DNA of 64,000 nucleotides from an archaeon. GTDB lineage: Archaea; Undinarchaeota; CAZHTU01; JBDRCC01. The notes below the pieces were generated by a model, which made no database searches, was not told the origin of the DNA, and saw only the letters and a program-made list of their open reading frames with translations. This document shows, in pieces, positions 2,014 through 37,740 of this stretch (within the stretch, counting starts at the first letter, position 1; the number at the start of each line of letters is the position of its first letter). The DNA lies in assembly GCA_043822065.1 (NCBI GenBank), contig JBDRCC010000020.1, forward strand, positions 1 through 64,000, given 5' to 3'. A program made the translations under genes and the position numbers.

Positions 2014-3129
2014 ATGGCTAAGCCGGTTTCGCCCTACAACAGCCTGTTTTTCAGGATATGGCACTCCATTGAGAAGCCGGTCTGCCGCGACGACATCTTC
2101 CGCCCGGAGCTTTTCATCGCGTTCTTCCTTGCGTTCCTCCTCTTCGGCATCCGCTCGGCGAGCAGGTACACCGCGGTAATCCCTGCATCCCTGCTTTTCT
2201 TCTATGCCGGCGCAAAGCTCTCGCCGAAGCTCAAGCTGGGCAAGTACTCTTTTTCCTTCCTCACGCCTAAGCGCACCCTCGCCCTGGCAGTCCTTTCAAT
2301 ACTCACCGGCGTATTCGAGCTGGCGCTCATCGGCGGGACCCCGCTCCTGAAGCCAGGCCTGTTCACAGACCACCACGTCATTTTCACAACAATTGCCTTT
2401 CTCTCAGTCCCCCTGGCGGTCATTTATCTTGGCCTTACTGGCAAGGAGAAGCTGCACATTTCGTCAGCCCTGTTCACCGCCGTCCTGGTGCTGATGTCCC
2501 TCCTGGGCTACCGAACCGAGGTCGTCGCCCTCCTGATAGCGTTCTTCGCAACTGCGTTCTACATGAAGCTCCTGCCCCAAAAGGTCCTTTACGTCGGAGT
2601 CGCCCTGTTCGTCTTCTCCATCCTCGGCTTGGGGCTGCTCAAGGCGCAGAGCGCCGGCGCCTCCGAGCTCAACGTCCTGACCACCCGCGCAGAGACCACG
2701 CTCTCCGTCAGCAACTATCTTACAGAGATATCCGGAATGACTGGGGTCTACCATGGCAGGGTCCACCTGTCAGCGTTCTCAACCCTGCTCAAGACGCCTG
2801 GTCCGAAGTTCGGCCCTAGGACGCTGATTGCGAACACAATCCAGGCGCGCCCGGGGGTAACAATCACCAGCACCCTTGCAGGCCCTCTCATCCTTGACTT
2901 TGGCATAGCCGGCTCGCTTGTGGGCTTCCTCCTCCTTGGCGTAATCCTCGGCAGGGCGCACGGCGCGGCAAGGACCGGGATGGACTATGCGGTTTATTCC
3001 GTCCTCCTTGCATTCGCCCTCATCTCAATCGAAACAGGTTTAATCGACGGGATAGTTTTAATATACTACATCCTGGGCACGGTGTATTTTTTCAGGCCAA
3101 GGCAGTGCGCCCATGGTCTAGTGGTATGA
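2014..3129 (+). CDS. Oligosaccharide repeat-unit polymerase (Wzy-like) membrane protein
   Basis: Multi-TM; LGYRT, TSTLAGPLILDFG and LISIETG motifs. Confidence 0.7.
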   Translation: MAKPVSPYNSLFFRIWHSIEKPVCRDDIFRPELFIAFFLAFLLFGIRSASRYTAVIPASLLFFYAGAKLSPKLKLGKYSFSFLTPKRTLALAVLSILTGVFELALIGGTPLLKPGLFTDHHVIFTTIAFLSVPLAVIYLGLTGKEKLHISSALFTAVLVLMSLLGYRTEVVALLIAFFATAFYMKLLPQKVLYVGVALFVFSILGLGLLKAQSAGASELNVLTTRAETTLSVSNYLTEISGMTGVYHGRVHLSAFSTLLKTPGPKFGPRTLIANTIQARPGVTITSTLAGPLILDFGIAGSLVGFLLLGVILGRAHGAARTGMDYAVYSVLLAFALISIETGLIDGIVLIYYILGTVYFFRPRQCAHGLVV

Positions 3130-3177
3130 TTCGAGCTTCCCAAGCTCGCGGTTCGGGTTCGATTCCCGGTGGGCGCA
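3107..3177 (+). tRNA. tRNA-Gly (CCC)
   Basis: Acceptor GCGCCCA/TGGGCGC, anticodon arm CGAGC-TTCCCAA-GCTCG, T-loop TTCGATT; CCA not encoded. Confidence 0.95.
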
Positions 3178-3210
3178 TCCATTTTATATCCCTGAGCTAA
3201 TATATCTAGC

Positions 3211-3924
3211 ATGGCAAAGTGCACTATTGTCGACTACAAGGGGAAGTCATACGACCTTTCAGACCCCACCCAGGAGATTAAGTTCCACGCCACAACCAAC
3301 CATGACCTCCTTACCGAGGATGAGTCGCAAAGCCCAGCCATGAGGGTCATGGTTCTTTTCAAGACAAAGTTCATACTCAAGAACGTCAGCGACGGCTCGG
3401 CAGTCCTGCTTGTCTCAGGCAGGGAGATGGCCCTCACCTAGGAGCTTGGAAAACGGAAAATCGACCTGACGGTAATCGACATCGTGCGCGAGACAATCGA
3501 GGCCGCAGAAAAAAATGCCAGGAACAAAAGAATCAAGTTTGTTGCCGCTGATGTCAGGTCTATGCCATTTGCCAGCTCCGCCTTTGATGCCGTTATACTC
3601 CCTGATGTCCTGGAGCATGTCTACTTGCCGGAGCGAAGCCTCAGCGAGGTAAAGCGCGTGCTGAAGCCTGGCGGCAGGGTCATAATCACCGTCCCTGACG
3701 AGAAAAAGGTCCAGGCTGCAAAAAGCATTATAGAGCTTGTGCCTATTCTCGCGGACCGGCTCCTCCACACCAAGGGGCTTTCTCCAAATCACATAAACGT
3801 CTTTGATGAAGCGTCCCTTAAGTCCGCACTAAAAAAAGAGGGCTTCAAGGTAGTTAGGCTTAGGAAGTCCCCCGCCGGCGTCGGCCTGCGGCTGATGTGC
3901 GTGGCAGTTAAAAGTGCAGAATAG
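3211..3924 (+). pseudogene. Class I SAM-dependent methyltransferase interrupted by one in-frame TAG (3439-3441)
   Basis: ORFs 3211-3441 and 3484-3924 are in the same frame. Read-through gives VLLVSGREMALT*ELGKRKIDLTVIDI...FVAADVRSMPF...FDAVILPDVLEHV...RVLKPGGRVIITVP. Confidence 0.7.
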
Positions 3925-3931
3925 GCCTGCC

Positions 3932-4126
3932 TCAGTAGCAGCTGCACTCTATCGGAAGCAAAGAGACGAGCTCGCAGGGGAAGTAGGCGGCCAGTATGAG
4001 CATGATTGCGCCACCTATTATAATTCCGGCAAGCAGGAGCCAGAGTATATAACCTATCACATCCCCGAACACGCTTTCCAGGGCTTCTTCAAGCATTCCC
4101 CATGCAGGATAAAATTTTAGCATCAT
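3932..4126 (-). CDS. Small membrane protein with Cys-containing C-terminus (paralog 2)
   Basis: EE..E.VFGD.IG motif, TM helix and CxC tail; similar to 4128-4325. Confidence 0.55.
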   Translation of the reverse strand: MMLKFYPAWGMLEEALESVFGDVIGYILWLLLAGIIIGGAIMLILAAYFPCELVSLLPIECSCY

Positions 4127-4127
4127 T

Positions 4128-4325
4128 TTAGCAGTTGCACGCCACGTTCGGGAGGATAGCGCCAATCCAGCAGCCATTGAAGTACATGAGCGCGGCGAAT
4201 ATGAGAATCCCCATTATTACCCCTATCAGGACTGTCCAAAAAATCCCGCCAAGGATGTCACCGAAAATGCCCTTGAATACCTCTTCCCCTACATCGAACA
4301 CAATTGGGAGAGCCGAAAATAGCAT
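4128..4325 (-). CDS. Small membrane protein with Cys-containing C-terminus (paralog 1)
   Basis: EEVFKGIFGDILGG, TM helix, ends ACNC. Confidence 0.6.
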   Translation of the reverse strand: MLFSALPIVFDVGEEVFKGIFGDILGGIFWTVLIGVIMGILIFAALMYFNGCWIGAILPNVACNC

Positions 4326-4413: not shown

Positions 4414-4869
4414 ATGTGCATGGGCCTGCAGAAAGTTATCGACCGGCTTGGGCTGAACGCGGAGATTATCCGCTTTTCCAAGCCAGTCACGACAACACGC
4501 GAGTCAGTCCTCGCCCTCGGCATCTCGCCGGAGCAGATAGTCAAGTCAATCCTCCTCATCCTCGATGAGAAGCGCCCGCTGATGTGCATCCTACGCGGCT
4601 CGGACCGGATTGACTTCAAGGCGCTCCGCCGCCTGTACAGCATCAATAACATCCGCACAGCAACGCCGGCTGAGGTCCTCCAGCACACAGGCTACGAGGT
4701 CGGCGCGGTCGCGCCCATAATTCCTGACCTTGAGTCGATTGCAGACCGGAGGATAATGAACTACGCCGACGTTTACGGCGGCGGGGGAACGACCACTTCC
4801 CTTGTGAAGCTATCCCCTGACGACATACTCCGCTATGCAAAGCTCCAGGACTTTGTGATTTCACCATAA
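4414..4869 (+). CDS. YbaK/EbsC family aminoacyl-tRNA editing protein
   Basis: QIVKSILL, TGYEVGAVAP and GGG motifs. Confidence 0.9.
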   Translation: MCMGLQKVIDRLGLNAEIIRFSKPVTTTRESVLALGISPEQIVKSILLILDEKRPLMCILRGSDRIDFKALRRLYSINNIRTATPAEVLQHTGYEVGAVAPIIPDLESIADRRIMNYADVYGGGGTTTSLVKLSPDDILRYAKLQDFVISP

Positions 4870-4901
4870 GGCTTATTAACCTCCAAGGCTTTAACCCTCC
4901 C

Positions 4902-5180
4902 ATGCAAAGGGGAATAGAGCTTTCCATACAGATGCTCGTCATACTAGCCCTCGCGCTGATTGTCCTCGTGACCGTCTCCATCTTTTTTTCGTCCGGCGCG
5001 ACAAACTTCATGTCCAAGATTTTCAAGTTCGGGAAGGCTGCCGGCGCGGACGATACCTCAGTAATCGAGAATACTTCCGTCTGGGCAAACCCGTTTAGCT
5101 CCTGCAAAACAAAAGACGACTGCCCTAGGAAAGGGGCGCTTACCGCAACTGCATGCACGGACAACAGGTGCGTCTACTAA
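4902..5180 (+). CDS. Class III signal peptide (pilin-like) protein with Cys-rich tip
   Basis: MQRG/IELSIQMLVILALALIVLV; 4 Cys in the C-terminal part. Confidence 0.75.
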   Translation: MQRGIELSIQMLVILALALIVLVTVSIFFSSGATNFMSKIFKFGKAAGADDTSVIENTSVWANPFSSCKTKDDCPRKGALTATACTDNRCVY

Positions 5181-5461
5181 TGAAAAAAGGAATGGAGTTC
5201 ACAATGTCGACGATTATAGTCATCATAATACTGTTAGTCACCGCTTTGTTCATCCTCCAATTCCTTGCGGCTGGCTTCCCAGCCGCGACAAAGCCGCTCT
5301 CTGGCATCATTGGCGAGGTCAAGGATGAGACCGGGGGGAAGCTTGTCGGATGCGGGAACAACATACGGGAGTCCTATCTCGGCGAGAAATGCGACGGAAC
5401 TGATTTTGGGCCGGATTGCGCTGTTGGCGCCACCGTATGCACTGACTGCAAGACCTGCTAA
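5180..5461 (+). CDS. Class III signal peptide (pilin-like) protein with Cys-rich tip
   Basis: MKKG/MEFTMSTIIVIIILLV; 6 Cys; TAATG overlap with the upstream gene. Confidence 0.75.
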   Translation: MKKGMEFTMSTIIVIIILLVTALFILQFLAAGFPAATKPLSGIIGEVKDETGGKLVGCGNNIRESYLGEKCDGTDFGPDCAVGATVCTDCKTC

Positions 5462-5500
5462 TAAGCAATATTTATTAACCCCCCACCCTTTCACACTACC

Positions 5501-5797
5501 ATGCGGGCATTTGAACTTACACTGACAACGGTGATAGCCCTTATAATCGGCTTGGTGACTATGGTCGCTATCCTGATATTTTTCAAGGGCGGCTTCGAGA
5601 TTGGCGGCGGGAGCATCGCAGGCGTGGTAAAGGAGGCAGCCAATGAGACCGGGGGCGACTTGATACCTAATAAAATGTCGTCCAGCCCAAAGGTCTTTTT
5701 CGGCTTCTGCGACTGCGAAACTGCAGGCACGGGTGATCCGGACTGCACAGCGATAGACTATACAAAGACCACCTGCGACGGATGCCACTGCAGCTAA
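5501..5797 (+). CDS. Class III signal peptide (pilin-like) protein with Cys-rich tip
   Basis: MRA/FELTLTTVIALIIGLV; ends CDGCHCS. Confidence 0.75.
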   Translation: MRAFELTLTTVIALIIGLVTMVAILIFFKGGFEIGGGSIAGVVKEAANETGGDLIPNKMSSSPKVFFGFCDCETAGTGDPDCTAIDYTKTTCDGCHCS

Positions 5798-5804
5798 CCC
5801 CATA

Positions 5805-5975
5805 ATGGACAAAAAAGCACTTTCAGGCAAGCAGATGCTACTACTCGCCATCCTTGCGCTGGCGGCAATAGCCCTGCTGTTCTACCTCAGACCAGCCCCG
5901 CAGCCTGGCGCCGGCTTGACAATCTACGACAGCATAAACGTGACTGAGCATGTACCATACCCGCACACAGGCTAA
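5805..5975 (+). CDS. Small (56 aa) pilin-like or membrane protein, not in the ORF track
   Basis: MDKKA/LSGKQMLLLAILALAAIALLFYLRP...PYPHTG*; fills the gap in the array. Confidence 0.55.
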   Translation: MDKKALSGKQMLLLAILALAAIALLFYLRPAPQPGAGLTIYDSINVTEHVPYPHTG

Positions 5976-6357
5976 ACGTGGAATCGAGCTGACGATGTCC
6001 GCAGTCGTCATCATAATCATAGTGCTCGCCACCCTGATACTCCTCATACGCTTCTTCACAGTCGGCTTTTCCGAGTCAGTCTCCTCCCTCTCTGAAATAC
6101 CGGAGAAGCTCGAGGAGCAGGGTGCCGAAGGCGTTACCCGCGTCACCGGAAGGTGCCCTAAACTGGATGATGGCACCCAGCTAAATTGGTTTTTGTCCGG
6201 CGGCTGCGAGGAGGCACCACCAGGCTGCACTATAGGGTCTTTTGGCTCAGATGCAGAGGCATACAACAAGTGCCGCAAGTGCGCCAGCGAGTCCATCCGG
6301 CTTATGAAGAGCAGGACCGGCACCAGCGGCGATGAGTGCGAGTGCGAATGCGTATAA
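5950..6357 (+). CDS. Class III signal peptide (pilin-like) protein with Cys-rich tip
   Basis: AKRG/IELTMSAVVIIIIVLATL; ends ECECECV. Confidence 0.75.
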   Translation: MYHTRTQAKRGIELTMSAVVIIIIVLATLILLIRFFTVGFSESVSSLSEIPEKLEEQGAEGVTRVTGRCPKLDDGTQLNWFLSGGCEEAPPGCTIGSFGSDAEAYNKCRKCASESIRLMKSRTGTSGDECECECV

Positions 6358-6358
6358 A

Positions 6359-6745
6359 ATGCGTGCCATAGAATTTACCATAACAACGATTGCCACCATA
6401 GTCCTCGCCCTGGTCAGCCTCACCCTCGTGATTATCGTCTTCAACTCCCAGTTCAGCAAAACATCGGAGCCCATGGAGGAGCTGACCACCGAGTCTGATG
6501 ACCTGCCTAGCGGAATCGACACCACGATAATACTCGGCAGGTTCAACATCTGCCCGAAAAACGCCAAGTACAAGTGCTTCCAGCCGCCGCCGTTCGACAA
6601 CGAGTGGTGCGGGAGCAGCTCAACATATAATTCAATGGGGGATTGCGTCAACCCATGCGCCACTGCAAGCGCAAAAATGGGCGGCGATGACGGCAACACG
6701 TACTCGGATACCGGGCAGTGCTACTGCAGGTGCGTAAATGGGTAG
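6359..6745 (+). CDS. Class III signal peptide (pilin-like) protein with Cys-rich tip
   Basis: MRA/IEFTITTIATIVLALV; CFQPPPFDNEWCG; ends GQCYCRC. Confidence 0.75.
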   Translation: MRAIEFTITTIATIVLALVSLTLVIIVFNSQFSKTSEPMEELTTESDDLPSGIDTTIILGRFNICPKNAKYKCFQPPPFDNEWCGSSSTYNSMGDCVNPCATASAKMGGDDGNTYSDTGQCYCRCVNG

Positions 6746-6746
6746 C

Positions 6747-7139
6747 ATGCGCGCGCTTGAGATGACGATAAAGACAATCGCGGTAATAATAGCCGCCCTC
6801 GTCTGCGCATTTTTAATCCTCCGCTTTTTTACCTCCCAGCTTGACTGGGCAACCGACAAGACAGACGCAACAACCCCAGACACCAGCCAGGACATAGGCT
6901 TTACAGGGATATACGGCGTCCTCGGCGCCTGCAAGGCGAAGGAGGGTGAGACCGTCGTCTGGAGGTGCGTCCAGCCGCCGCCGTTCGACAGCGAGGACTG
7001 TGGCGTGCCCTACGCGTTTGCCTCAAAGCACGAGTGCACCTACGGAATAGCTAGCGGGGGCACTACAACACAAGAGGGCTGCCGGTACATAACCTCCGAC
7101 TACGACAAGGACTGCTTCTGCAAGTGCTCCTCCGAATAA
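6747..7139 (+). CDS. Class III signal peptide (pilin-like) protein with Cys-rich tip
   Basis: MRA/LEMTIKTIAVIIAALV; CVQPPPFDSEDCG; CFCKC. Confidence 0.75.
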   Translation: MRALEMTIKTIAVIIAALVCAFLILRFFTSQLDWATDKTDATTPDTSQDIGFTGIYGVLGACKAKEGETVVWRCVQPPPFDSEDCGVPYAFASKHECTYGIASGGTTTQEGCRYITSDYDKDCFCKCSSE

Positions 7140-7179
7140 GAACCTTAAGTTTTATCAATTCAGCCAACATTATCCCAGC

Positions 7180-7572
7180 ATGCGCGCAATGGAGTTCACA
7201 ATAGAGACAGTGGTCATCGCAATCATTATGATAGTCGTCCTTGCCGTAGTCTTGATATTCTTCAACCGAAGCTTCCAGGACTCCTCCGAGGTAATAGGGC
7301 AGGCGGAGACTCCAGCCGAGAAAATAAACGCAATCCAGGACATGGGCAGCCTGTTCCGCTACCTCGGCGCCTGCCCTAGCGACGCGGTTTGGAAGTGCGT
7401 CCAGCCGAGGCCTTTCGACGACGAGGACTGCGGCTCAAACCCGTCACCAGGCTTTCTAACGAAGAAAGACTGCATGTACGGTGAGGGGTTTTCTAACACA
7501 TATGGTGGATGCAACTTCAGGGGGTCTAGCTACGACGACGACTGCTTCTGCAAGTGCTTTCCGCCGGCGTAG
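7180..7572 (+). CDS. Class III signal peptide (pilin-like) protein with Cys-rich tip
   Basis: MRA/MEFTIETVVIAIIMIVVL; CVQPRPFDDEDCG; CFCKC. Confidence 0.75.
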   Translation: MRAMEFTIETVVIAIIMIVVLAVVLIFFNRSFQDSSEVIGQAETPAEKINAIQDMGSLFRYLGACPSDAVWKCVQPRPFDDEDCGSNPSPGFLTKKDCMYGEGFSNTYGGCNFRGSSYDDDCFCKCFPPA

Positions 7573-8200
7573 CCGAAAGAAGCCTTACCACGTCACACCC
7601 ATCTGCAACAAGCTTTTTTATCTCGCCAAGCTCCAGCCCGAATGCTTTCCTCACAAGCCTGGCAGTCTCGCTATTGGGGTTCAGCACCAAAAAAGATAGG
7701 AGCGAGTTGAAGTTGTGCGGCTTCCTCGCCGAGCTCCCCCTTTCAAAGTCTATCAGGACAATCTTCTTTCCGACTATGATGTGCTTCGGTGCAGAGCTCA
7801 GCTGCCCGTGGTCTATCCCGGCGCCGTCCAGCCTTTTAGCCTGGCTGAGGACATCCAAAACGACTTTCCTGATCCTCGCGCCCGGCGCGCTGCCTACCCA
7901 CTTGCCGAACGCCTCGCCGCCGGCAAACTCCATGGCGATTGCTTCCATCTTTCGGTCGTACCCTAGAAGTTTCGGCCCGACGCCGACTGCGTTAGCCTTC
8001 TTCAGCATCTCCGCCTCGCTTTTGAGGCTTGTCCCGGGAACCTTGTTCCTCAGGACCTTGAGGCAGATTACCCCCTTTTCAGTGTCCGCCTTGTAGACGA
8101 CACCGCGCCACCCCCTCTTCTCCAGCTTGCTGTTTTCCCAGGGCACAAGCCGGAAAACCCGGAATGGAAATTTGAAATCAGTTCGCCCGTCACTCTTCAT
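7526..8200 (-). CDS. Archaeal atypical Ser/Thr protein kinase (RIO/Bud32-like); start uncertain
   Basis: RGWRGVVY glycine loop, CLKV Lys, EAEML, GVGPKL, IDHGQL, LIDFE. Confidence 0.75.
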   Translation of the reverse strand: MKSDGRTDFKFPFRVFRLVPWENSKLEKRGWRGVVYKADTEKGVICLKVLRNKVPGTSLKSEAEMLKKANAVGVGPKLLGYDRKMEAIAMEFAGGEAFGKWVGSAPGARIRKVVLDVLSQAKRLDGAGIDHGQLSSAPKHIIVGKKIVLIDFERGSSARKPHNFNSLLSFLVLNPNSETARLVRKAFGLELGEIKKLVADGCDVVRLLSATPAESTCRSSRRRS

Positions 8201-14891: not shown

Positions 14892-14912
14892 TCCTGAACC
14901 CACCGGCATTTT

Positions 14913-15470
14913 ATGGAAAGCGGGAGAGGGTATTTTTCACTTTTTTCAGCCATAGGCATCGTCCTGATGGCGTACTTCCTTTTCTCAGTCTACTCCTTGC
15001 ACACCTCCATCCTTTCTGAGGGCCGCTCTACGTCAATCCTCCTCGACCGGCTCTACACCTCGAGGAAAGGCGCGGAAACACTTTTTTGGGAGGCTGCGCT
15101 CGTCAAGGATTCCAACGATGAAAAGATGCTTTCCTGGGAAGCCGCCCTCGAGAACGATCAGATAAGCACCGCAGCATGGGTCGGCGACGCGATAAACTCC
15201 TCTGCCCTCTCCTGCAACCTCTCCGCAATGCAGCTCCAGCACGGGGGGACTGACCTCAGCGATAGGGTTGACGATTCCCCTAATAAAACCTACGAATTCG
15301 TTGACTGCCTCGCCCCGCCGCTTTCGGGCCAAGAGGATTCAATCCAGGTCCATCCGTGCAACGTCTCAGGCATCCCCGCCTTCGCCGCCGTCATCTGTTT
15401 CAAAAGCCCGGAAGCAGCCACCTATTTCGCGGCAAACAGCGGCGACCTCAAATCCATACCCACAACCTGA
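14913..15470 (+). CDS. Pilus-associated protein with class III-like N-terminus
   Basis: MESGRG/YFSLFSAIGIVLMAYFLF. Confidence 0.55.
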   Translation: MESGRGYFSLFSAIGIVLMAYFLFSVYSLHTSILSEGRSTSILLDRLYTSRKGAETLFWEAALVKDSNDEKMLSWEAALENDQISTAAWVGDAINSSALSCNLSAMQLQHGGTDLSDRVDDSPNKTYEFVDCLAPPLSGQEDSIQVHPCNVSGIPAFAAVICFKSPEAATYFAANSGDLKSIPTT

Positions 15471-15822
15471 GGGTATACACATCGTTCCCGGAAAAAAACA
15501 TCCGCTCGGCAGATACCCTCTCCCCCACCCTCTGGTTATACCCTATTCCCATTTCCACTATGCTAAACCCGAATTCATACTGCGGGCTCAGCAGCCCCAA
15601 CTTTTTCTTAATTTCGCCCTGGATGCAGCTTTCATCATACTTGCATCCCTGGACCATCCCATCTCTTACAATCCTCACTAGCACGTCGTTCGCATGCAGC
15701 TCCATCAACCTGTAGTTCGGCCCGGCCTGCGGCTCCGGCGTCATGGTCGCGAGCATTATTATGAACACTACCGCGAGGAAAACCGGCTCCATTAGGTACA
15801 TCAGCCCCCTAGTAGACCGCAA
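15448..15822 (-). CDS. Minor pilin-like protein (start uncertain)
   Basis: RSTRG/LMYLMEPVFLAVVFIIML. Confidence 0.6.
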   Translation of the reverse strand: MRSTRGLMYLMEPVFLAVVFIIMLATMTPEPQAGPNYRLMELHANDVLVRIVRDGMVQGCKYDESCIQGEIKKKLGLLSPQYEFGFSIVEMGIGYNQRVGERVSAERMFFSGNDVYTLRLWVWI

Positions 15823-16339
15823 CCGTAAGCACCGCATCCTGCTCCACACCCCCAACCTGCACGCCAACAAGCCGCTTCACGACAGCCCGATTATCCGCAT
15901 CAGGAAGCCTGTCAAGGTACTCCATCCCGCCAGCCTCAATCCCGACCGACAGGTTGTACTTCCCAAGCCCGTACATCTCCCGCACCTTGTCCCTGCCTGC
16001 TTTCAGCATTTCATCAAGCGCGTTTACCTTGCCAATGTCCAGCACCCGTTCTTCTACCGATTTACTTTCCCAGTCGTAATGCGCAAGCCCCGGGTGGTAA
16101 ACGTCCTGAGCCGTCCAGTCCACCCCCGTTTGGCTATACCCTGGATTGTGCACAAGGTCATTCGACACGGTGACCGCAATCTCCTCCATCACCACTCTCC
16201 TGTGCGCCTCGGAAACAGCCTCCGCGCTCCCTGCCAGGTATGCCAGCGCGACAAACACTAGCCAGAGCGACGCCACAAGCCCGACCATGGCGGAAAGGCT
16301 ACTCTGCCCTGACCGTGACCGAACCGTTGGCATTTTCAA
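15809..16339 (-). CDS. Minor pilin-like protein
   Basis: RSRSG/QSSLSAMVGLVASLWLVFVALAYL. Confidence 0.65.
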   Translation of the reverse strand: MKMPTVRSRSGQSSLSAMVGLVASLWLVFVALAYLAGSAEAVSEAHRRVVMEEIAVTVSNDLVHNPGYSQTGVDWTAQDVYHPGLAHYDWESKSVEERVLDIGKVNALDEMLKAGRDKVREMYGLGKYNLSVGIEAGGMEYLDRLPDADNRAVVKRLVGVQVGGVEQDAVLTVAVY

Positions 16340-16679
16340 TTCTCACCACCCCGCTATACGCCTTATCCTCGGCAGAGACGTTCCCGAAAACCCGTTTCGA
16401 AACCTCCGCCCCGCCCCGCTTCATAGTCAGCTCAGTCCCATTCGACTCAAGGGTAAAGTTGCTCACTTCCAGCCGGAGGCTCACTACGTTCCCGTCGCCG
16501 AGGAAGTGCACCCCGCCGGCGGCATTCGCAATTTTCGTTAGCTCAAGGTTCATTTTCGCCTTCGAGCCGAAGTGCTCCTCCTTCTCGCTGAATCTTATGT
16601 ATATCCCCCCGAAGGCTGCGATTATCATGGCGGAAGCCGCCAGGACCATCATTGCCTCGAGGGCAGCCTGCGCCCTCAT
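16299..16679 (-). CDS. Class III signal peptide pilin (QxxxE type)
   Basis: MRA/QAALEAMMVLAASAMIIAAF. Confidence 0.75.
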   Translation of the reverse strand: MRAQAALEAMMVLAASAMIIAAFGGIYIRFSEKEEHFGSKAKMNLELTKIANAAGGVHFLGDGNVVSLRLEVSNFTLESNGTELTMKRGGAEVSKRVFGNVSAEDKAYSGVVRIENANGSVTVRAE

Positions 16680-16682
16680 GCC

Positions 16683-16874
16683 CTATTTGGCAAGCTCTGC
16701 CAAGGCGCCATTCAGCTGGCTTGCCGCAGTCTTGTTCAGCTCTAACGCCGCGCCCTTCGCAAACCCGACGGCTATCGACGCGACGGCTATCCCCACCGCG
16801 AGCATCATCAGCGTTACCAGCGCGCCGGAGACCGCCCTTGATGCCATCAGCCTTGTCCTGAGTATTTTCCACAT
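16683..16874 (-). CDS. Short major pilin-like protein
   Basis: SRA/VSGALVTLMMLAVGIAVASIAVGF followed by an amphipathic helix. Confidence 0.7.
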   Translation of the reverse strand: MWKILRTRLMASRAVSGALVTLMMLAVGIAVASIAVGFAKGAALELNKTAASQLNGALAELAK

Positions 16875-16970
16875 ACTGCCCACCTCAAACTTCCGGCGGG
16901 TTCGCTTGCTTATAAATCTTCCCATAACAAGATATTTAAACAACGGAACTTTTCTCTAATTGGAGGTAAC

Positions 16971-17306
16971 ATGGCACTAATAGTCGAAGGAGCCGCAATG
17001 GCTTTGACCCTTTTCGTCATCGGCGTACTGGCGAACTATTCCGGAATCGTGAAGAAGGCAGAGAAAGGCTTTGAGTTTATCATCGCCGGAGCTTTCCTGT
17101 ACATCTTCACCGCCGCTCTCCAGTACACTCTGACATTCAGGGTTGCTGGTGTCTACATCGTGGAGCTCAGCACAACTTTCGGCATACTGATGGCGCTTGT
17201 CGCAATGGCTTCGAGCCTGCTTGCGCTGTTCTGCGTCCTTATGGGCGCGCTGTATGCTGTCGAGGAGCTCAGCCAGCAGCACGCAAAGCGATCCGGGAAG
17301 CGATAG
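16971..17306 (+). CDS. Hypothetical membrane protein
   Basis: 3 TM segments; GGAGGT RBS upstream. Confidence 0.7.
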   Translation: MALIVEGAAMALTLFVIGVLANYSGIVKKAEKGFEFIIAGAFLYIFTAALQYTLTFRVAGVYIVELSTTFGILMALVAMASSLLALFCVLMGALYAVEELSQQHAKRSGKR

Positions 17307-17351
17307 GCGGCATTGCAGCATTGGGGCATCATTTCAGGTTGCCCTCGCATA

Positions 17352-19091
17352 TCATATAAGGCTAAGGCTTTTTGTTATGCTGAACAGTGCGTTCCCCCCT
17401 ACCAAAAGGATGGGAAGGTACATCAGCATCTTTTTTTTGTTCCCCTCCAGGTTGGCGACTGAAAAAGAAATAACAAACGGCTGGACCAGGAGGTTCAGCT
17501 GGATGCCCTTCACGAGTGCGTCAAGCATTCCTAGGTCTACCGTGAACAACGTCCCGTTAAGCAGGCCCACCAGCCCGCCGCCCATCGAGACCACGACGCC
17601 GAACAGGCATGACGCTATCATGAATCCGGCAAGCTGGGTCATCCTCTCGCTTGCAGTCGCCGACCTTGCCTCCTGCATGAGGTACTTTACCCTCCGTATG
17701 TATTCCGACGTCTCAAGGAAAGCCTGGCGCATGTTCACCCCCGTCTTGTGGGCGTCAACAAGCAGCGAAGAAGCCCGCTTCACGAGCTCTGAGCCGGTGT
17801 CCCTGTAGATTTTTGAGAGCGACTCCTCGACCGTGCTCCCCGCCTCAATCTCCCTCGAAGCCATGGAAAAGTGCCAGCTTATCCCATTGAGCCCGAGCTT
17901 TCCTATCCCGCTGACTATCCTCTCCGTCCTGTCCTCCGAAAACTGCGCAGCCTGCTCAAGGACGACTGGGAGGTTTTCCTCAAGGTCCTTTAGGAAGGAC
18001 GCGTACTGCACAAGGGGGTAGGCGATGAACGCCCCGCCGGCGAACGCGCCTGCGGCCGCGGAAAATGCGACCGAGTTAAACGCCCCTGCGCCAAGCGCCC
18101 TTGCAAGCAGGATGCTGCCTGCAAAAGCCCCCACACCAAGCGCCATCCCAGCCCCAACTCGAAATCCCGCTCCGTGCCCGTACCCCAGCACTCCAAGCGC
18201 CCTGTCGAGCTCGTCCAGCATGCCATCCTTCCTCGTGCCGTGCAGCCTCTTCACGAAAACCGGCACTGTCGAAAGCTGGTACTGGTAAAGGCATATTGCG
18301 GCGAAGCTGAAGCCAAAGCCTATCCCCGAGCTTATTGCAAGCTCAGAGACGTCCGGCGAGTAAATCAGCATGCCTATCATCAGCAGGCAGACAAGAAGCG
18401 TCGGGAATACGACGGTAAAAACGGTCGACGTCTGGCTTAGAATGCCCGACTTCGCGTTGTGCTCCCTCAAAACATTCTCATTTTTCTTCAGTATGGCCTC
18501 AGCCACCTGCCGTATGCTCCCGCTGTTCGGCTGGGCGTACGAGCTCTTGAGCGCGGCAATTCCCTGGCCAACGAGCACCGAGTCGACTGAATCCGCTACC
18601 CTGTCCAGCCCGTCGAGGATGCTCGCCCCAGCCCGTTCCCAAATCAGGACGCGCCTTACCTCCTCGGAAAAATGGCCGTAGCCGGAGGAAACGCGCTCAA
18701 GGCATTTCCGGAACAGCCTGCCGGAGCCCATATCCGCCGAAACCACAAGGAGCCCGAGCCCCATGTCCGTTTCGAATTCCTCTGCGTACCTCTTCCTGCA
18801 CTTATCAGGCTCAATCAGCGAAAGCGCAAAGCAGCCAAAGCCAGCCATCCCGGCAGCCAAGAGCGCCCTTGAAAGCCCACCCCCAAGCAGCCCAAACAGC
18901 GCGAGGAGCAGCAGGAAAACCATGCCGAAACCCAAAATTCCCAGGAACACAGAATACACAAACCACTCCTCCGCAGAATGCTCGAGCTGCGACTTTGCAA
19001 GGCTCTTTCCAAGGTATTCTCTTGCCGTAGAGGGTATTGGTACAAGCGGTTTTATCTTTTGGCTGAGCTCTACGAGGCTGTCCTTTTTCAA
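17352..19091 (-). CDS. tadC: Type II/IV secretion system membrane platform protein (TadC/PilC, two T2SSF domains)
   Basis: Two repeats: SGYGHFSEEVRRVLI..RAGAS..DGL and LEENLP...EIEAGSTVEESL; next to pilins. Confidence 0.8.
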   Translation of the reverse strand: MKKDSLVELSQKIKPLVPIPSTAREYLGKSLAKSQLEHSAEEWFVYSVFLGILGFGMVFLLLLALFGLLGGGLSRALLAAGMAGFGCFALSLIEPDKCRKRYAEEFETDMGLGLLVVSADMGSGRLFRKCLERVSSGYGHFSEEVRRVLIWERAGASILDGLDRVADSVDSVLVGQGIAALKSSYAQPNSGSIRQVAEAILKKNENVLREHNAKSGILSQTSTVFTVVFPTLLVCLLMIGMLIYSPDVSELAISSGIGFGFSFAAICLYQYQLSTVPVFVKRLHGTRKDGMLDELDRALGVLGYGHGAGFRVGAGMALGVGAFAGSILLARALGAGAFNSVAFSAAAGAFAGGAFIAYPLVQYASFLKDLEENLPVVLEQAAQFSEDRTERIVSGIGKLGLNGISWHFSMASREIEAGSTVEESLSKIYRDTGSELVKRASSLLVDAHKTGVNMRQAFLETSEYIRRVKYLMQEARSATASERMTQLAGFMIASCLFGVVVSMGGGLVGLLNGTLFTVDLGMLDALVKGIQLNLLVQPFVISFSVANLEGNKKKMLMYLPILLVGGNALFSITKSLSLI

Positions 19092-19095
19092 ATCT

Positions 19096-19218
19096 TCAGA
19101 ACGGCAGCGAGATTGGCATGCTTATGAACCCAAACCACTGCAGCACGAAAACTATGACGATTACCGCAAGGACTGCGATAACCGCATACACCAGCTTTCT
19201 CTTCGTCTCGTCTTCCAT
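19096..19218 (-). CDS. 40 aa single-TM protein, not in the ORF track
   Basis: MEDETKRKLVYAVIAVLAVIVIVFVLQWFGFISMPISLPF*, just upstream of tadC. Confidence 0.55.
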   Translation of the reverse strand: MEDETKRKLVYAVIAVLAVIVIVFVLQWFGFISMPISLPF

Positions 19219-20001: not shown

Positions 20002-20052
20002 AGCTCCCCTAAATATACCAACATTTAAAATCTTATGCCCCTTATACAAACC

Positions 20053-20235
20053 ATGAAGCGCGGAGTCTCGCTTTCCATGGAGCTTGTGGTTTCCCTTATC
20101 CTCCTGCTGTGCGTGGGAATCCTGCTAATACTCTTCTTCCAGGGAAGGATTTATGAAACAGTCAAGATGGTGGAATTCGGCGGCTCTTTCAGCGCCGAAG
20201 AGGGCGCTGGCAGGATAATCTCCGGCTACTCATAG
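20053..20235 (+). CDS. Short class III signal peptide (pilin-like) protein
   Basis: MKRG/VSLSMELVVSLILLLCVGILLILFF; same N-terminal style as the 4902-7572 array but no Cys tip. Confidence 0.65.
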   Translation: MKRGVSLSMELVVSLILLLCVGILLILFFQGRIYETVKMVEFGGSFSAEEGAGRIISGYS

Positions 20236-25487: not shown

Positions 25488-25556
25488 CCGAACATCAGCA
25501 ACGACCTTCTTTCAAAAGAAGCTCGACCAAGAAACCATTTAGCCGAACATCAGCAA
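25484..25556. repeat. Duplicated gene 3' end (18 nt) flanking a REP-like hairpin
   Basis: 25484-25501 vs 25539-25556, 17/18; hairpin cgaccttcttt-ca-aaagaagctcg then accaagaaac. Confidence 0.88.
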
Positions 25557-26714
25557 TTCTGGCTTAAGTATCAGGACAAATCCGAGCCCCGCAATCATCA
25601 GCCCGCTCACCAGCTTGAGCCACTTGCCCTCTTTCTGCGTGACTTGGTGCTTCGTCATCGTGTAGACCGCAATCGCGAAGATAGCAAGGTCGTCAAGCAT
25701 GTACATCAGGATGTACAGGGCAAAATACAGGTAGTACTCTATCCTCGGCAGCTCGTGCATCGAGATTATCGTTGAATATATCACCGGCAGCCCTGCCGTG
25801 CACAGCAGCTCCACGAAGTTCACGGTGACCGCGACTGCCATCACACCAAGCATCATAGCGGGCGCTATACTCTGCTTGACGAGCTCATTCATCCTGTGGA
25901 CGATCTTCTTCTTCAGGTGGAGCGGTATCGACAGTGAGATGCCCTTGCCGAACCAGAAGAAGTCCTTCAGGTTTATCACTCCAGCAGCTATCGCGCCGAG
26001 CCCGACGACTGCCCTCAGCCAGGGCATGTACTTCAGGTAGCTCACGACATTGAACGCCGCCGCTATGAACATATAATATACAAGCCCGGAGACGAAAATG
26101 AACGTCCCGCCGATTATCATCATCTTTTTCCGGTCCCCGCTCCCTATCAAAAGGGCAATCAGGAATGTCAGCACCCACATCGCGCAGGGGTTGAACCCGT
26201 CGAGCAGGCCTATCACTACCGTGAAAACCGGGAGTGAAAATGCGTCAATCCCCACCCTGCCTAAAAACGGAAGGGTAACCGTGTCTGTCGCCTCGCAGCT
26301 TTCCACTCCGTTCGGCTCGGCAATCTCCAGCGCGTCCCTGCAGCCGTTTTCTATGCACCCGGCAATCTCTGCCTCAATCTCCGCGCTGGATGTCTCATCA
26401 CTGTCATAGCCGACAAAATGTTTCTCGCCAATTATTAGGGTAGGCACCGAGGATGGGTTGAACCCGCAGGTTTCCCCCATCTGCAGGAAAAGCTCCTGGT
26501 TCGGCACGCTCTCAAGGAGTTCGTACCTGTGGACCTCAAGCTCCGGGTATTTTGCCTCCATCGCGTCAAGGAAAACCTGCTCCTTGTGGCAGTGCGGGCA
26601 GCCCTCTGCCCAGAACATGTACGCCTTAGTCTCGTGCCCGCCTGCGGCAAAGCCAAAGCTGCTGAATAGGAGCAATACTAAACAAGCGATGAAAAGCTTT
26701 TTCATGCGAGCCAT
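25539..26714 (-). CDS. Thioredoxin/glutaredoxin fused to a CcdA/DsbD-like membrane domain
   Basis: Signal peptide, GCPHC, SVP; DGFNPCAMW and ELLCTAGLP. Confidence 0.85.
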   Translation of the reverse strand: MARMKKLFIACLVLLLFSSFGFAAGGHETKAYMFWAEGCPHCHKEQVFLDAMEAKYPELEVHRYELLESVPNQELFLQMGETCGFNPSSVPTLIIGEKHFVGYDSDETSSAEIEAEIAGCIENGCRDALEIAEPNGVESCEATDTVTLPFLGRVGIDAFSLPVFTVVIGLLDGFNPCAMWVLTFLIALLIGSGDRKKMMIIGGTFIFVSGLVYYMFIAAAFNVVSYLKYMPWLRAVVGLGAIAAGVINLKDFFWFGKGISLSIPLHLKKKIVHRMNELVKQSIAPAMMLGVMAVAVTVNFVELLCTAGLPVIYSTIISMHELPRIEYYLYFALYILMYMLDDLAIFAIAVYTMTKHQVTQKEGKWLKLVSGLMIAGLGFVLILKPELLMFG

Positions 26715-34135: not shown

Positions 34136-35097
34136 AACGCAGTTTTAGCCTTTAGTCCCTGGCCCCGTAGACTGATTTCAGCCATCACGCACTTGCCGTG
34201 CACGACCTCGATGCCATTGTTTTTGCTGAAACCGATGGCTTCTCCCGATTCCGAGCTAGGCTGCATCCACACCTTCTTTATTTCTGCGTCCTTGCACGCC
34301 CTGACGATTTTTTCCGTGACCTGCGGCGAGACGACAATGTCCACAACATCCGGCTTCTTCGGCAGGCTCTTCAGGTCAGGGTAGCACTTGCGCTCCAATA
34401 TCTTTTCCGCATTAGGATTAACTGGATAAGCCTCGTATCCCTGCGCCAGCAGGAACTTGAAAATTTTATGGCCGTATTTTCTAAAATTTGCCGAAGCCCC
34501 CACTACGGCATAAACATTTGTTTTCTCAAGAAACTTTTTTACCAGCGCCGCGTCGTCCTCGAAGCTCATCCCCATCTCATGCCACTCTGCGCCGCCGTGG
34601 GTGGACGCCGACTTGCCAGTGTAAACAAAGCCGAGCTTCCTGTAGTAATCAACCATGTTTTCCTTGCATATCAGCAGGACCTTTTCTTTTCCGAGCCCTT
34701 TGGAAATCTCCACAAACCTCTCGACCAGCCGCCTCGAAACCCCAAGCCCCCTGAACTCCGGCAGGACTGCGACAGTGAACACGACAACATTCTTCCCGCC
34801 CGGAACATGGCCAACCATGCCCTTCAGCTCCTCTGCACTGATGTCCTCCTTTTCTATTGTGGCGCCGTTTATTATGCCGATTATTTTCCCGCCCAGCTCG
34901 GCGACAAGAAATCCCTCTGGGAACAGCTCAATCCTTTTCCTGAACTTTTCCTCCGAAGCCACCTCAGGTGGAGGATAGCACCTGTCCTCAACAATCCACG
35001 CTGCATGCAAATCAGCCAGCCGCACCTGCCTGATGATTATCTCGTCCGGGCTCACCCCAATGCCCTCAGAAGCAGAGGTCACGTTTGCCATCTTCAA
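34132..35097 (-). CDS. GNAT N-acetyltransferase fused to a CoA-binding domain
   Basis: VAVLPEFRGLG, YYRKLGF, STHGGAEWHEM; then AVVGAS...YPVNP...VWMQP. Confidence 0.85.
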   Translation of the reverse strand: MKMANVTSASEGIGVSPDEIIIRQVRLADLHAAWIVEDRCYPPPEVASEEKFRKRIELFPEGFLVAELGGKIIGIINGATIEKEDISAEELKGMVGHVPGGKNVVVFTVAVLPEFRGLGVSRRLVERFVEISKGLGKEKVLLICKENMVDYYRKLGFVYTGKSASTHGGAEWHEMGMSFEDDAALVKKFLEKTNVYAVVGASANFRKYGHKIFKFLLAQGYEAYPVNPNAEKILERKCYPDLKSLPKKPDVVDIVVSPQVTEKIVRACKDAEIKKVWMQPSSESGEAIGFSKNNGIEVVHGKCVMAEISLRGQGLKAKTAF

Positions 35098-36454
35098 GCT
35101 CCTTAAGCCGCTTTATGGTCAGCTCCCGCCTCTTTTTGCCCTCAATGCCCTTTAGCTGGTCCTCTATGACATTGTCCCCGAGTTTCCTCAGCTCTTCATC
35201 TGCATAGTCCAGCAGGTACTCCTTGAAAGTCAGAAGCGAGTTCGGCAGGCAGAAGTTCCTAATCAGCCCCGGTTTTGCCATGTCCATGAAGTCCTTTCCA
35301 GTCCTTCCCAGCCGGTAGCAGGCGGTACAGAAGCTCGGGCTGTAGCCCATCTTGCAGATGTCCTCCACAATTTCAGCCATTGACCTTGAGTCATGAAGCG
35401 TGAACTGCTCCGCATCCCCTTTGCTGTCCTCCGAATACCCGCCGGGGTTCGTCCGCGAGCCCGCGCTTATCTGCGAGATGCCCAAGCCGAAGACCTCGTT
35501 CCGCATCTTTGCAGTTTCCCTTGTAGACAGAATCATCCCAGTGTATGGGACCGCCAGCCTGAGTATTGCAACCATCTTCTTGAAGTCGCCATCCGAAACA
35601 GGCGCCGGCGGCGTGCATGCGGCGGGCGCGTTCAGCGCCGGCTCGAGCCGCGGGACGGAAATCGTGTGCGGTCCGACGCCATACTTCTCGTCAAGGTGCT
35701 TCGCGTGGTATAACAATCCCATGATCTCAAACTTATAATCATAAAGCCCGAACAGCGCGCCAATCCCGACGTCGTCAATCCCACCCTCCTTGGCGTTATC
35801 CATCGCATATAGCCTGTTCAGGTAGTGCGACTTCGGCCCAGAGACATGCATCTTTTCATACGTCGGGCGGTGGTAGGTCTCCTGGAACTCCTGGTATGTC
35901 CCTATCCCCTTCGCTTTGAGCCTCCTGTAGTTCTCGACGGTCTGCGGGGCAATGTTGATGTTAACCCGCCGTATCTCCCCCTTCCCGACCTTCGTCGAAT
36001 AAACAGTGTCAATAGCGTTCTCGAGGTACTCAATGTTCGCGGTGTTGTTGTCTTCTCCAGCGACAAGCAGGAGCCGCTTGTGTCCCTCCTTTTCGAGGAG
36101 CTCGACCTCGCGCCTTATTTCATCCGTTGACAATACCTTCCGTTTCAGCTCCTTGTTGTCCTTCCTGAAGCCGCAGTAAAGGCAGTTGTTTACGCAGACG
36201 TTCGTCAGGTAAAGCGGCGCAAAAAATACCAGCCTCTTGCCGTAAATATCCTCCTTTATCTTCCGCGCCGCAGTGAAAATCTTCTGTATTACTTCTTTGT
36301 CCTCTGTCTGGAGCAGGACGGCTGCCTCCGCCGGCGCCAGCCCCTTCAGCTTGAGCGCCTTTTCGACAACAGCAAGCGCTTCCGCGTGTGAAGCCTTCTT
36401 CCCCCTGGCAAGCTCTTCCTCTATTTTTTTCTGGTCAATGAAGCTTTCCATCAT
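35066..36454 (-). CDS. hydG: [FeFe]-hydrogenase maturase HydG (radical SAM)
   Basis: FAPLYLTNVCVNNCLYCGF, FQETYH, VGPHTISVPR, C-terminal CTAC-x22-C auxiliary cluster motif. Confidence 0.93.
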   Translation of the reverse strand: MMESFIDQKKIEEELARGKKASHAEALAVVEKALKLKGLAPAEAAVLLQTEDKEVIQKIFTAARKIKEDIYGKRLVFFAPLYLTNVCVNNCLYCGFRKDNKELKRKVLSTDEIRREVELLEKEGHKRLLLVAGEDNNTANIEYLENAIDTVYSTKVGKGEIRRVNINIAPQTVENYRRLKAKGIGTYQEFQETYHRPTYEKMHVSGPKSHYLNRLYAMDNAKEGGIDDVGIGALFGLYDYKFEIMGLLYHAKHLDEKYGVGPHTISVPRLEPALNAPAACTPPAPVSDGDFKKMVAILRLAVPYTGMILSTRETAKMRNEVFGLGISQISAGSRTNPGGYSEDSKGDAEQFTLHDSRSMAEIVEDICKMGYSPSFCTACYRLGRTGKDFMDMAKPGLIRNFCLPNSLLTFKEYLLDYADEELRKLGDNVIEDQLKGIEGKKRRELTIKRLKELEDGKRDLCF

Positions 36455-37740
36455 AATCCCAAGTCCGTCGGAGCCCTTCCCAGCCTCTTCAGCAGGGCTA
36501 CGGTCTCATCGACGCTGTCCGCAGCCTCCGAGCCGCTTCCTGCCTTGTCCGGGTATATTGAATACAGCATCTTGTACTTTTTAGGCGTGACGTTAACCAT
36601 CAGCGAGTTCCCGCCAGACTTAAGCCCCTTCTCCTTCCCTTCCCTGCCAAGTGTCTCGACAGCAGTCGTTACAAGTATCTTCGCGTCCGGCTGCATAAGC
36701 CTTGAAACAGCGAGCGCCTTCATAGCCAGCTCCAGCGGCGGCTGCGCCTCCTTTCCCAGCGGCGTGTCAGGGTGCGGGATGAACGGCCCGAAGGAGTACA
36801 TCTCAGTCCCGAGCTCCTTTGTAAGCGCGATATCATTAACCAAGTCATCTTCCGTCTGCCCAGGAAGCCCAATCAGCCCCCCTGTCGCGATAAGGTAGCC
36901 CATCTTTCCAATCTCGCGTATCAGCTTCACCTTGTCTTCGAGCTTTTCTCCGGGGTGCAGCTTTGCATAAAGCTTAGGATTCGATGTCTCAAATCTCATC
37001 AGGCACGCCCTTGCGCCGGCGTCATAGAACTTCCTGTACGATTCCGCCGGCCTGTCCCCGAAGCTCACGAAAATCAGCGCACTGCACCTCTTCCAAACCT
37101 CGCGCACTACCCTTGCCAGGTCTTCGTCCGAATAATAGTCATCCTCGCCTGACTGTAAAACAAACGCTTTGAACCCAAGCTCCGTCGACGCCTTTTCCGC
37201 GGCTGCTATAATCTCGTCTGGCTCCATCCTGTACCTCTTCAACTCCTTGTTTCCTGCCCTCAGCCCGCAGTACTGGCAGTTCTGCTTGCAGTAGTTTGAG
37301 AACTCGATTATCCCGTGGACGCAGCATGCGTTCCCAAGAGCCCGGTGCCTCACCTGGTTTGCAGTCTCGTACAGCAGGCGGAGCTCGTTTTTGTCGGAAG
37401 TCTCCATCAGCCTGAGCCCGTCAGCCAAGCCCAAGTCAGGCGTCTGAGACGCCCTGTTGATTATCCGCCTAAACTCGCCAGAAACCTTTATGTCGTGGAC
37501 CTCTGCCTGCGCCTCGTCAGCTCCCTTCAGCTGGAAGAACAGCTCCCTCCATTCCTTTAATATCTCAAGCGCCTCATCCCCAGGTATCTTCCCCACGATA
37601 AAACCGCCCTGGGCGTAGACATATTCGCCAACTTTAGGCATTATAAGGTCCGCCCTTGCTTTCCTTATCTCGCCAAAATACTCAACATCAGCGTTCTGCC
37701 CGCTTATCGCAGCAACTCTGCCGGGTATCGCATAGCACAT
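36451..37740 (-). CDS. hydE: HypC/HupF-like domain fused to [FeFe]-hydrogenase maturase HydE
   Basis: N-terminus MCYAIPGRV...VGEYVYAQGGF; GIIEFSNYCKQNCQYCGLR, LQSGED, ETSN..LY..LHP, GPFIPHPDTPL, YSIYP. Confidence 0.88.
   Translation of the reverse strand: MCYAIPGRVAAISGQNADVEYFGEIRKARADLIMPKVGEYVYAQGGFIVGKIPGDEALEILKEWRELFFQLKGADEAQAEVHDIKVSGEFRRIINRASQTPDLGLADGLRLMETSDKNELRLLYETANQVRHRALGNACCVHGIIEFSNYCKQNCQYCGLRAGNKELKRYRMEPDEIIAAAEKASTELGFKAFVLQSGEDDYYSDEDLARVVREVWKRCSALIFVSFGDRPAESYRKFYDAGARACLMRFETSNPKLYAKLHPGEKLEDKVKLIREIGKMGYLIATGGLIGLPGQTEDDLVNDIALTKELGTEMYSFGPFIPHPDTPLGKEAQPPLELAMKALAVSRLMQPDAKILVTTAVETLGREGKEKGLKSGGNSLMVNVTPKKYKMLYSIYPDKAGSGSEAADSVDETVALLKRLGRAPTDLGL

Follow-up and report, generated by a model that had tools for sequence, protein, structure and literature searches.

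A tandem family of small proteins with class III-type N-termini and cysteine-rich tails in an Undinarchaeota contig

We analyzed a 64,000-nucleotide (nt) stretch of archaeal DNA (positions 1-64,000 of contig JBDRCC010000020.1, assembly GCA_043822065.1, lineage Undinarchaeota; hereafter, the window) that carries a tandem array of eight co-oriented plus-strand open reading frames (ORFs), g1 to g8, spanning positions 4902-7572, as a first-pass annotation made from the letters alone had reported. The array is a real, coherent gene family. Seven of its members are probably small surface proteins of an unnamed family, with class III (prepilin-type) signals and disulfide-stabilized heads, that serve as minor or alternative pilins, a reading to which we assign a probability of roughly 0.55. 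In their mode of working they would be class III-signal surface proteins, and they are putative members of a pilin family.

The array and its relatives

The seven members (g1-g3 and g5-g8; Table 1) shared the motif [KR][GA]-x-E-[LFM]-[ST] 3-10 residues from the start, followed in each by an uncharged run of 16-24 residues and a tail of 58-105 residues. A regular expression for [KR][GA]xEx[STA] plus a hydrophobic run gave seven matches in the six-frame translation of the window, and all seven were array members. Their tails carried four to eight cysteines, always in even number, amounting to 6.9-9.0% of tail residues (1.13% for 36 genes of the window confirmed by Pfam), and the cysteine-rich endings CHCS, CECECV, CYCRCVNG, CFCKCSSE, and CFCKCFPPA were found; in six of the seven the tail had a net charge of -3 to -7. 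This combination of motif, transmembrane helix, and cysteine tail had been described by the first-pass annotation and was borne out, as was its remark that two members share ETGG and the DNA behind it: the window holds just two copies of GAGACCGGGGG, at positions 5327 (g2) and 5645 (g3), and two or more matches arose in none of 100 shuffles. The block C(V/F)QP(P/R)PFDxExCG was likewise common to g6-g8, among which seven of eight cysteine columns were invariant. Its DNA, said to be near-identical, proved less alike: over 48 nt, two copies agreed with the reference copy at 73% and 83%; a 29-nt stretch at the CFCKC end was 93% identical between copies.

Codon usage indicated that the plus strand is the coding strand of the array. 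Log-odds per codon were 0.25-0.38 for g1-g8 and 0.42 +/- 0.13 for the 36 confident Pfam-confirmed genes, against -0.32 to 0.08 for five long antisense ORFs overlapping the array; a sixth antisense ORF, of 57 codons, scored 0.22. Independent homologs were found for g3 (metagenomic protein P0005, 51% identity, E = 1e-22) and for g8 (P0010, also metagenomic, 30% identity over helix and tip, E = 1e-7). Stop and start codons abutted or overlapped: the g1 stop and g2 start as TAATG, g4 and g5 by 26 nt, and g6 and g7 each beginning 1 nt past the preceding stop. It could be argued that these are chance ORFs in a region of 52-56% G+C, or that the overlapping antisense ORFs of 100-205 amino acids (aa) are the true genes, the array belonging to no named family. 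Against the codon usage, the tight gene junctions, the independent homologs, and TATA-like boxes at the genome's usual spacing, that explanation is very improbable.

Those boxes lay 29-30 nt before the ATG of g1, g3, and g8, and an equal spacing preceded many first-in-operon genes in the window; the boxes of g1 and g3 sat inside a common 33-nt upstream repeat (family D6, 79% identical). The spacing suggested leaderless transcripts and three promoter-like units, g1-g2, g3-g7, and g8. The ORF g4 is only a putative gene, and it was not matched by a hidden Markov model (HMM) of the family N-terminus. This HMM, trained on the seven array genes and run over 1006 stop-to-stop segments, recovered an eighth member of the N-terminal family from outside its training set, an ORF at 20035 (E = 1.7e-8, 29.7 bits; next best E = 0.71).

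Relatives were few. A word-indexed homolog search with g8 returned g8 itself as the one match among four candidates. When a profile of g6-g8 was run exhaustively (HMMER) against 1.84 billion representatives, 13 proteins passed E <= 0.001, three of them from the window; two of the matches, P0004 and P0006, were beta-helix/PMP-repeat proteins and were judged spurious. Of 6281 candidates, 27 matched a 15-sequence profile at E <= 0.01; all measured 79-128 aa and three came from the window, the sole named match being a hypothetical protein of a Candidatus Woesearchaeota archaeon. With the window's own proteins, P0004, and P0006 left out, 29 relatives were analyzed, unnamed proteins of 62-133 aa built like those of the array. 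The pattern [KRDE][GAS]xx[LMFIV][STPAN] occurred within the first 35 residues in 28 of the 29, behind leaders of 3-22 residues; 25 of these 28 had Q or E at +1 or E at +2, and ten had Q at +1 ("QG") in the form Q, then G-[LMIV]-S. At least four tail cysteines were present in 23 of the 29, and an even number outside the helix in 25 (zero in one of these).

The nearest ESM-Atlas clusters consisted of hypothetical proteins of archaea (107-127 aa), most often from Aenigmatarchaeota and Nanobdellota. No Pfam, NCBIfam, or PHROGs model reached its cut-off for any of the seven, and scans of genome contigs, with the neighboring Lon_C protein for synteny and with a four-sequence alignment of g3 and relatives, gave no confirmed relative. 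Literature searches on cysteine-rich pilin-like proteins in DPANN archaea turned up no account of such a family in the titles and abstracts of the papers listed (12 of 32 in the larger search). Together, these results describe a sparse, unnamed family, and the few taxon labels at hand point to DPANN archaea.

The first-pass annotation had viewed the array as a duplicating, diversifying repertoire, which the divergence of the paralogs did not support. Whole-gene nucleotide identity among g6-g8 was 49-57%, with synonymous divergence (dS) of 1.05-1.25. A comparison of nonsynonymous with synonymous divergence (dN/dS) among g6-g8 gave nominal values of 0.5-0.7, which, with dS saturated, carry no reading on selection. 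Over all pairs of eight members (the array seven and the 20035 ORF), identity averaged 35% for residues 1-32 and 29% beyond them. Between g7 and g8, the most similar pair, the tail (42% identical) was no more diverged than the N-terminus (38%). Judged by these sequences, the array is an old paralog family, with no visible sign of ongoing duplication or diversification.

Class III-type signals and the pilin question

Passages of PMC4371748 characterize class III signals in general by a small residue (G, A, or S) at -1, charge at -2, closeness to the N-terminus, and a hydrophobic H-domain, and name RAQI, KGQV, RALS, and RAVS as experimentally used sites. All four features were present in all seven array proteins, in agreement with the class III N-termini that the annotation had proposed. 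The residue at -1 was G in g1, g2, and g5 and A in g3, g6, g7, and g8; the residue at -2 was K or R in all seven, as in 28 of the 29 relatives; and leaders of 3-10 residues (up to 13 with alternative starts) led into the uncharged run. The H-domain carries a caveat, as E at +2, plus K or E at +6 in g7 and g8, precedes that run.

By the favored reading, each protein would be inserted N-in/C-out through its class III signal, and a PibD/FlaK-type peptidase would then cut behind [KR][GA]. The hydrophobic helix of about 20 residues would be retained, either within the core of a type IV filament (or a short pseudopilus) or as a mere membrane anchor, while a short acidic linker would bear a compact head of about 30-65 residues, with two to four disulfides, outside the cell. 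At least three sequence types can be told apart among the heads (g1; g2/g3; g5; g6-g8), so that a cell could display several alternative surface knobs, and the 20035 paralog, which has no tip, is a candidate core subunit. We infer cleavage, polymerization, and disulfide formation, as well as the biological role, for which adhesion or partner recognition appears most likely. Display on a pilus, host recognition, virus evasion, and contact-dependent action, as put forward by the first-pass annotation, are conjectural. In a bolder version, these are DPANN mini-pilins of an unnamed class (a core helix with a head of at most 65 residues and two to four disulfides). The seven structurally different heads, from three units, would join a head-less core subunit in a single type IV filament, as an interchangeable set of tips with which the cell adheres to or recognizes hosts, finding and holding them. 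This version seems to us rather doubtful.

Several observations weighed against a pilin identity. No pilin, archaellin, or class III model in Pfam/NCBIfam reached its cut-off for the seven, the best pilin-related match being GspH for g8 at E = 0.15. Profile searches of the PDB with full-length and N-terminal alignments found no pilin, and Foldseek against the PDB found no pilin fold with low-confidence models. If the cut falls after [GA], all seven carry E at +2 rather than at the +5 of bacterial and EppA-type substrates, and E at +2 matched no known archaeal pattern in the literature passages covered. No assembly ATPase and no A24 prepilin peptidase turned up in a Pfam scan of the window. Of the machinery for type IV filaments, the window showed a TadC-like platform gene and nothing more, and the array, some 10 kb away, is not part of the operon of that gene.

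A short basic N-terminus followed by one long helix also fits an uncleaved signal-anchor equally well. The proteins could be bitopic type II (N-in/C-out) membrane proteins whose cysteine-rich ectodomain stays unpolymerized at the membrane or under the surface layer, the [KR][GA]xE motif serving insertion, topology, or intramembrane interaction. The acidic tails of six of the seven, the location outside the TadC-like operon, and the lack of a match to any pilin model or fold or of a clear link to machinery are in keeping with this. A plain anchor, however, needs no such motif. Positions -2 and -1 are strictly conserved in the array and in 28 of the 29 distant relatives, whose remaining sequence is only about 30% identical, which argues for a recognition site, and so does the Q at +1 that ten relatives share with known substrates of prepilin peptidases. 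We regard signal-anchors as possible and clearly less probable than class III-signal proteins of pilin type.

Bacterial type IV pilins are lollipop-shaped, with a disulfide-bounded D-region, and Flp/Tad subunits are very small; the array proteins would resemble both. They differ in that bacterial type IV pilins have E or D at +5 after a cut between G and F, where all seven array proteins have E at +2, and the N-methyl and Flp models remained below cut-off for the array family, as did the match of the relatives to Flp1_like.

Among archaeal type IV pilins and class III proteins, EpdA-E of Methanococcus maripaludis, PilA1-6 of Haloferax volcanii, and Ups/Aap of Sulfolobus have in common with the array a charged residue at -2, G or A at -1, a leader of few residues, and a hydrophobic helix of about 20 residues, which in the array would likewise be retained. 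Passages of PMC4371748 describe several pilin paralogs per genome, often apart from the machinery genes, and the array is arranged likewise. The array proteins differ from these pilins in being unmatched by the models of those families and far smaller (92-135 aa), in having E at +2, and in bearing a mini-domain with four to eight cysteines where the others bear an Ig-like or beta-rich head. The hallmark of DUF361/EppA substrates, in passages of PMC2910488, is Q at +1 together with QXSXEXXXL. In the array, +1 is I, M, F, or L and QXSXEXXXL is absent. The ten relatives with Q at +1 mirror EppA substrates as these appear in passages of PMC4371748 and PMC2910488, but their Q leads into G-[LMIV]-S and not into that motif.

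Class III signals also deliver or tether binding proteins, as in the Sulfolobus bindosome treated in passages of PMC2910488 and PMC13705601. There the signal tethers an extracellular domain rather than building a long pilus, which could apply to the array heads; bindosome cargo consists, however, of large substrate-binding proteins beside ABC transporters, whereas the array cargo is tiny and has no adjacent transporter. Closer in lineage, passages of Makarova, Wolf, and Koonin (2019, PMC6393860) describe "dark matter" islands of DPANN genomes that encode diverse predicted pilins. Like the array, these are clusters of small, fast-evolving, unannotated, signal-bearing proteins. They are recognized by adjacent FlaI/TadC-type genes, whereas the array stands at a distance from its sole TadC-like gene and has a motif of its own, and a cysteine-rich head is not mentioned for them in those passages. 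Pili are encoded in all Undinarchaeota genomes according to passages of PMC7414124.

The cysteine-rich heads

Even cysteine counts and invariant cysteine columns indicated that the heads are probably held by two to four disulfides. AlphaFold modeled g8 as an N-terminal helix (residues 3-43, predicted local distance difference test [pLDDT] up to 93) leading through a low-confidence linker into a small head. Mean pLDDT was 65.7 for the full-length protein and 64.8 for the tip alone (predicted TM-score 0.52). The low confidence of the head models (pLDDT 50-77) tells against the favored reading, as does the probable anaerobic life of the organism, which makes extracellular disulfides less self-evident. 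Anaerobiosis was deduced from HydG and a HypC-HydE fusion, [FeFe]-hydrogenase maturases that both scored above their NCBIfam cut-offs; a Pfam scan of the window showed no hydrogenase structural gene.

A fold search with both AlphaFold models gave no PDB match at E <= 0.001, a weak negative in view of their low confidence. The ESM-Atlas structure matches all had TM-scores below 0.5, and the tip had no usable match among named clusters. What did appear lay below threshold: Nodulin_late for g1 (18 bits against a Pfam cut-off of 30.4), a YxzE-like putative bacteriocin for the relative P0026 (24.2 bits against 40), and dendrotoxin K in a PDB profile search (E = 0.22). The first-pass description of the tips as defensin- or toxin-sized knots was therefore left without a fold match at E <= 0.001 or a Pfam family at cut-off.

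Conserved cysteines, thought to form stabilizing disulfides, are reported for pilus components of Thermoproteales in passages of PMC4858521 and PMC13705601. Those components are larger, come from hyperthermophilic Thermoproteota, and showed no detected sequence similarity to the array, in which cysteines are far denser (heads of at most about 65 residues).

The cysteines might instead bind a metal (Zn, Fe, Cu, or Ni) or an iron-sulfur-like cluster, which would make the heads metal or redox modules at the surface of an anaerobe. Being an idea about what the cysteines do, it would suit a pilin and an anchor alike. The terminal CxC and CxCxC strings (CECEC, CYCRC, CFCKC) resemble metal-binding spacing, HydG and HydE imply anoxic life, and FeoAB and an iron-dependent repressor are encoded in the window. 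The even cysteine number in the array and in most relatives, the extracytoplasmic location, and the lack of a match to any His- or Cys-rich metal-site family in Pfam and NCBIfam speak for disulfides, and metal binding appears unlikely.

A further proposal, in which secreted cysteine-rich peptides of a bacteriocin, defensin, or toxin kind are made from these ORFs as precursors, released by a cut after the hydrophobic segment, and act on neighbors or hosts, is less likely still. The tails are cysteine-rich and of fitting size, about 30-65 residues, and the three matches named above would suit it, yet each was under threshold and no toxin or defensin fold was matched. In addition, 16-24 uncharged residues with their flanks are long for a Sec signal, and no common AxA-type site follows them. 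A locus for a bacteriocin or a ribosomally synthesized and post-translationally modified peptide would have maturase, exporter, and immunity genes alongside; no such genes were found adjacent to the array, and the radical S-adenosylmethionine genes lie at least about 28 kb away, two of the three being HydE and HydG.

Elsewhere in the window, a 391-aa protein combines a signal peptide, a thioredoxin/glutaredoxin-like domain with CPHC (sub-threshold), and a multi-pass membrane part. It may be an exported thiol-disulfide oxidoreductase, which would bear on the cysteine-rich surface proteins and speaks for the favored reading.

Genomic surroundings and significance

The coordinates of the array and of other features of the window are given in Table 1. 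A gene for a secreted protein with a Lon_C domain was also among those flanking the array.

Table 1. Features of the 64-kb window. A slash marks the putative prepilin peptidase cut.
Feature	Positions	Strand	Length (aa)	Tail Cys	Details
tRNA-Gly	3106-3181				
Methyltransferase ORF	3484-3924	+			Possibly truncated
Small membrane ORF 1	3932-4177	-			
Small membrane ORF 2	4128-4325	-			Paralog of ORF 1
YbaK-like deacylase gene	4414-4869				Array flank
TATA-like box	4873-4879	+			TTATTAA; 29 nt before g1 ATG; opens unit 1 (g1-g2)
g1	4902-5180	+	92	4	MQRG/IELS; 24-residue uncharged helix; 58-residue tail
g2	5180-5461	+	93	6	MKKG/MEFT; ETGG in tail; other ATG at 5153
TATA-like box	5472-5478	+			TTATTAA; 29 nt before g3 ATG; opens unit 2 (g3-g7)
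g3	5501-5797	+	98	6	MRA/FELT; ETGG in tail; CHCS end
g4	5805-5975	+	56		Single helix; no Cys; no family motif; codon log-odds 0.247
g5	5950-6357	+	135	8	..AKRG/IELT; 10-residue leader; CECECV end
g6	6359-6745	+	128	8	MRA/IEFT; CFQPPPFDNEWCG block; CYCRCVNG end; other ATG at 6332
g7	6747-7139	+	130	8	MRA/LEMT; one further Cys in helix; other ATG at 6738
TATA-like box	7150-7158	+			TTTTATCAA; 30 nt before g8 ATG; opens unit 3 (g8)
g8	7180-7572	+	130	8	MRA/MEFT
Bud32-like kinase gene	7526-8200				Array flank; convergent; sub-threshold match
Region of TadC-like gene and small ORFs behind it	14900-19100	-			Four ORFs
TadC/PilC/FlaJ-like platform protein (T2SSF)	17352-19091	-			Pfam PF00482, 27.1 bits against cut-off 25.2
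Eighth N-terminal-family member	20035-20235	+	66		..MKRG/VSLSMEL; no Cys-rich tail; adjoins PAP2 and TadC-like genes
CPHC-containing membrane protein	25539-26714	-	391		
HydG and HypC-HydE fusion	35066-37740	-			
Surface protein	44762-49909	+	1715		
Lysyl-tRNA synthetase (LysRS)	50209-51711	-			Bacterial-type class II

Behind the TadC-like gene, at least three of the four small ORFs had class III-looking N-termini of other types (RA/VSG, RA/QAALE, SG/QSSLS). They gave no match to the array HMM, and neither an ATPase nor a prepilin peptidase was found nearby. This locus, with the family member at 20035 beside it, speaks for the favored reading. The 1715-aa surface protein, with four LamG-type and Ig-like domains and many N-glycosylation sequons near its start, is a candidate adhesin whose N-terminus (..KRA and a hydrophobic run) could be class III-like. 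Just upstream of the array, the two small membrane ORFs were paralogs (37% identity, E = 2e-10) with three cysteines each, both ending in ..LP-x-x-C-x-C; neither matched a family, and the second had a codon log-odds of 0.43.

The methyltransferase ORF, just downstream of tRNA-Gly, fits the Methyltransf_11 model at positions 29-95 only and looks N-terminally truncated. The 3' end of tRNA-Gly was not repeated within the window as an att-like site would be, and no match that would point to a mobile element came from tblastn against phages (with g8) and plasmids (with g3) or from PHROGs. The LysRS shared 82% identity with a Candidatus Undinarchaeota protein and about 60% with Firmicutes enzymes, a pattern suggestive of transfer from bacteria long ago; its best match alone suggests Undinarchaeota. 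With fibrillarin, Nop5, and TrmB as archaeal marker genes in the window, the organism is the archaeon that the first-pass annotation had taken it to be, probably of the DPANN group.

DPANN archaea depend on physical cell contact, and few of the molecules that mediate it are known, the rest belonging to unannotated "dark matter". Should the array proteins be mere membrane anchors, they would represent an ordinary lineage-specific paralog family. If they are pilin-like, the known subunits of type IV filaments would gain a further kind of head. As a compact, easily expressed surface family with a clear processing motif and a tiny head stabilized by disulfides, they would offer concrete candidates for attachment or recognition.

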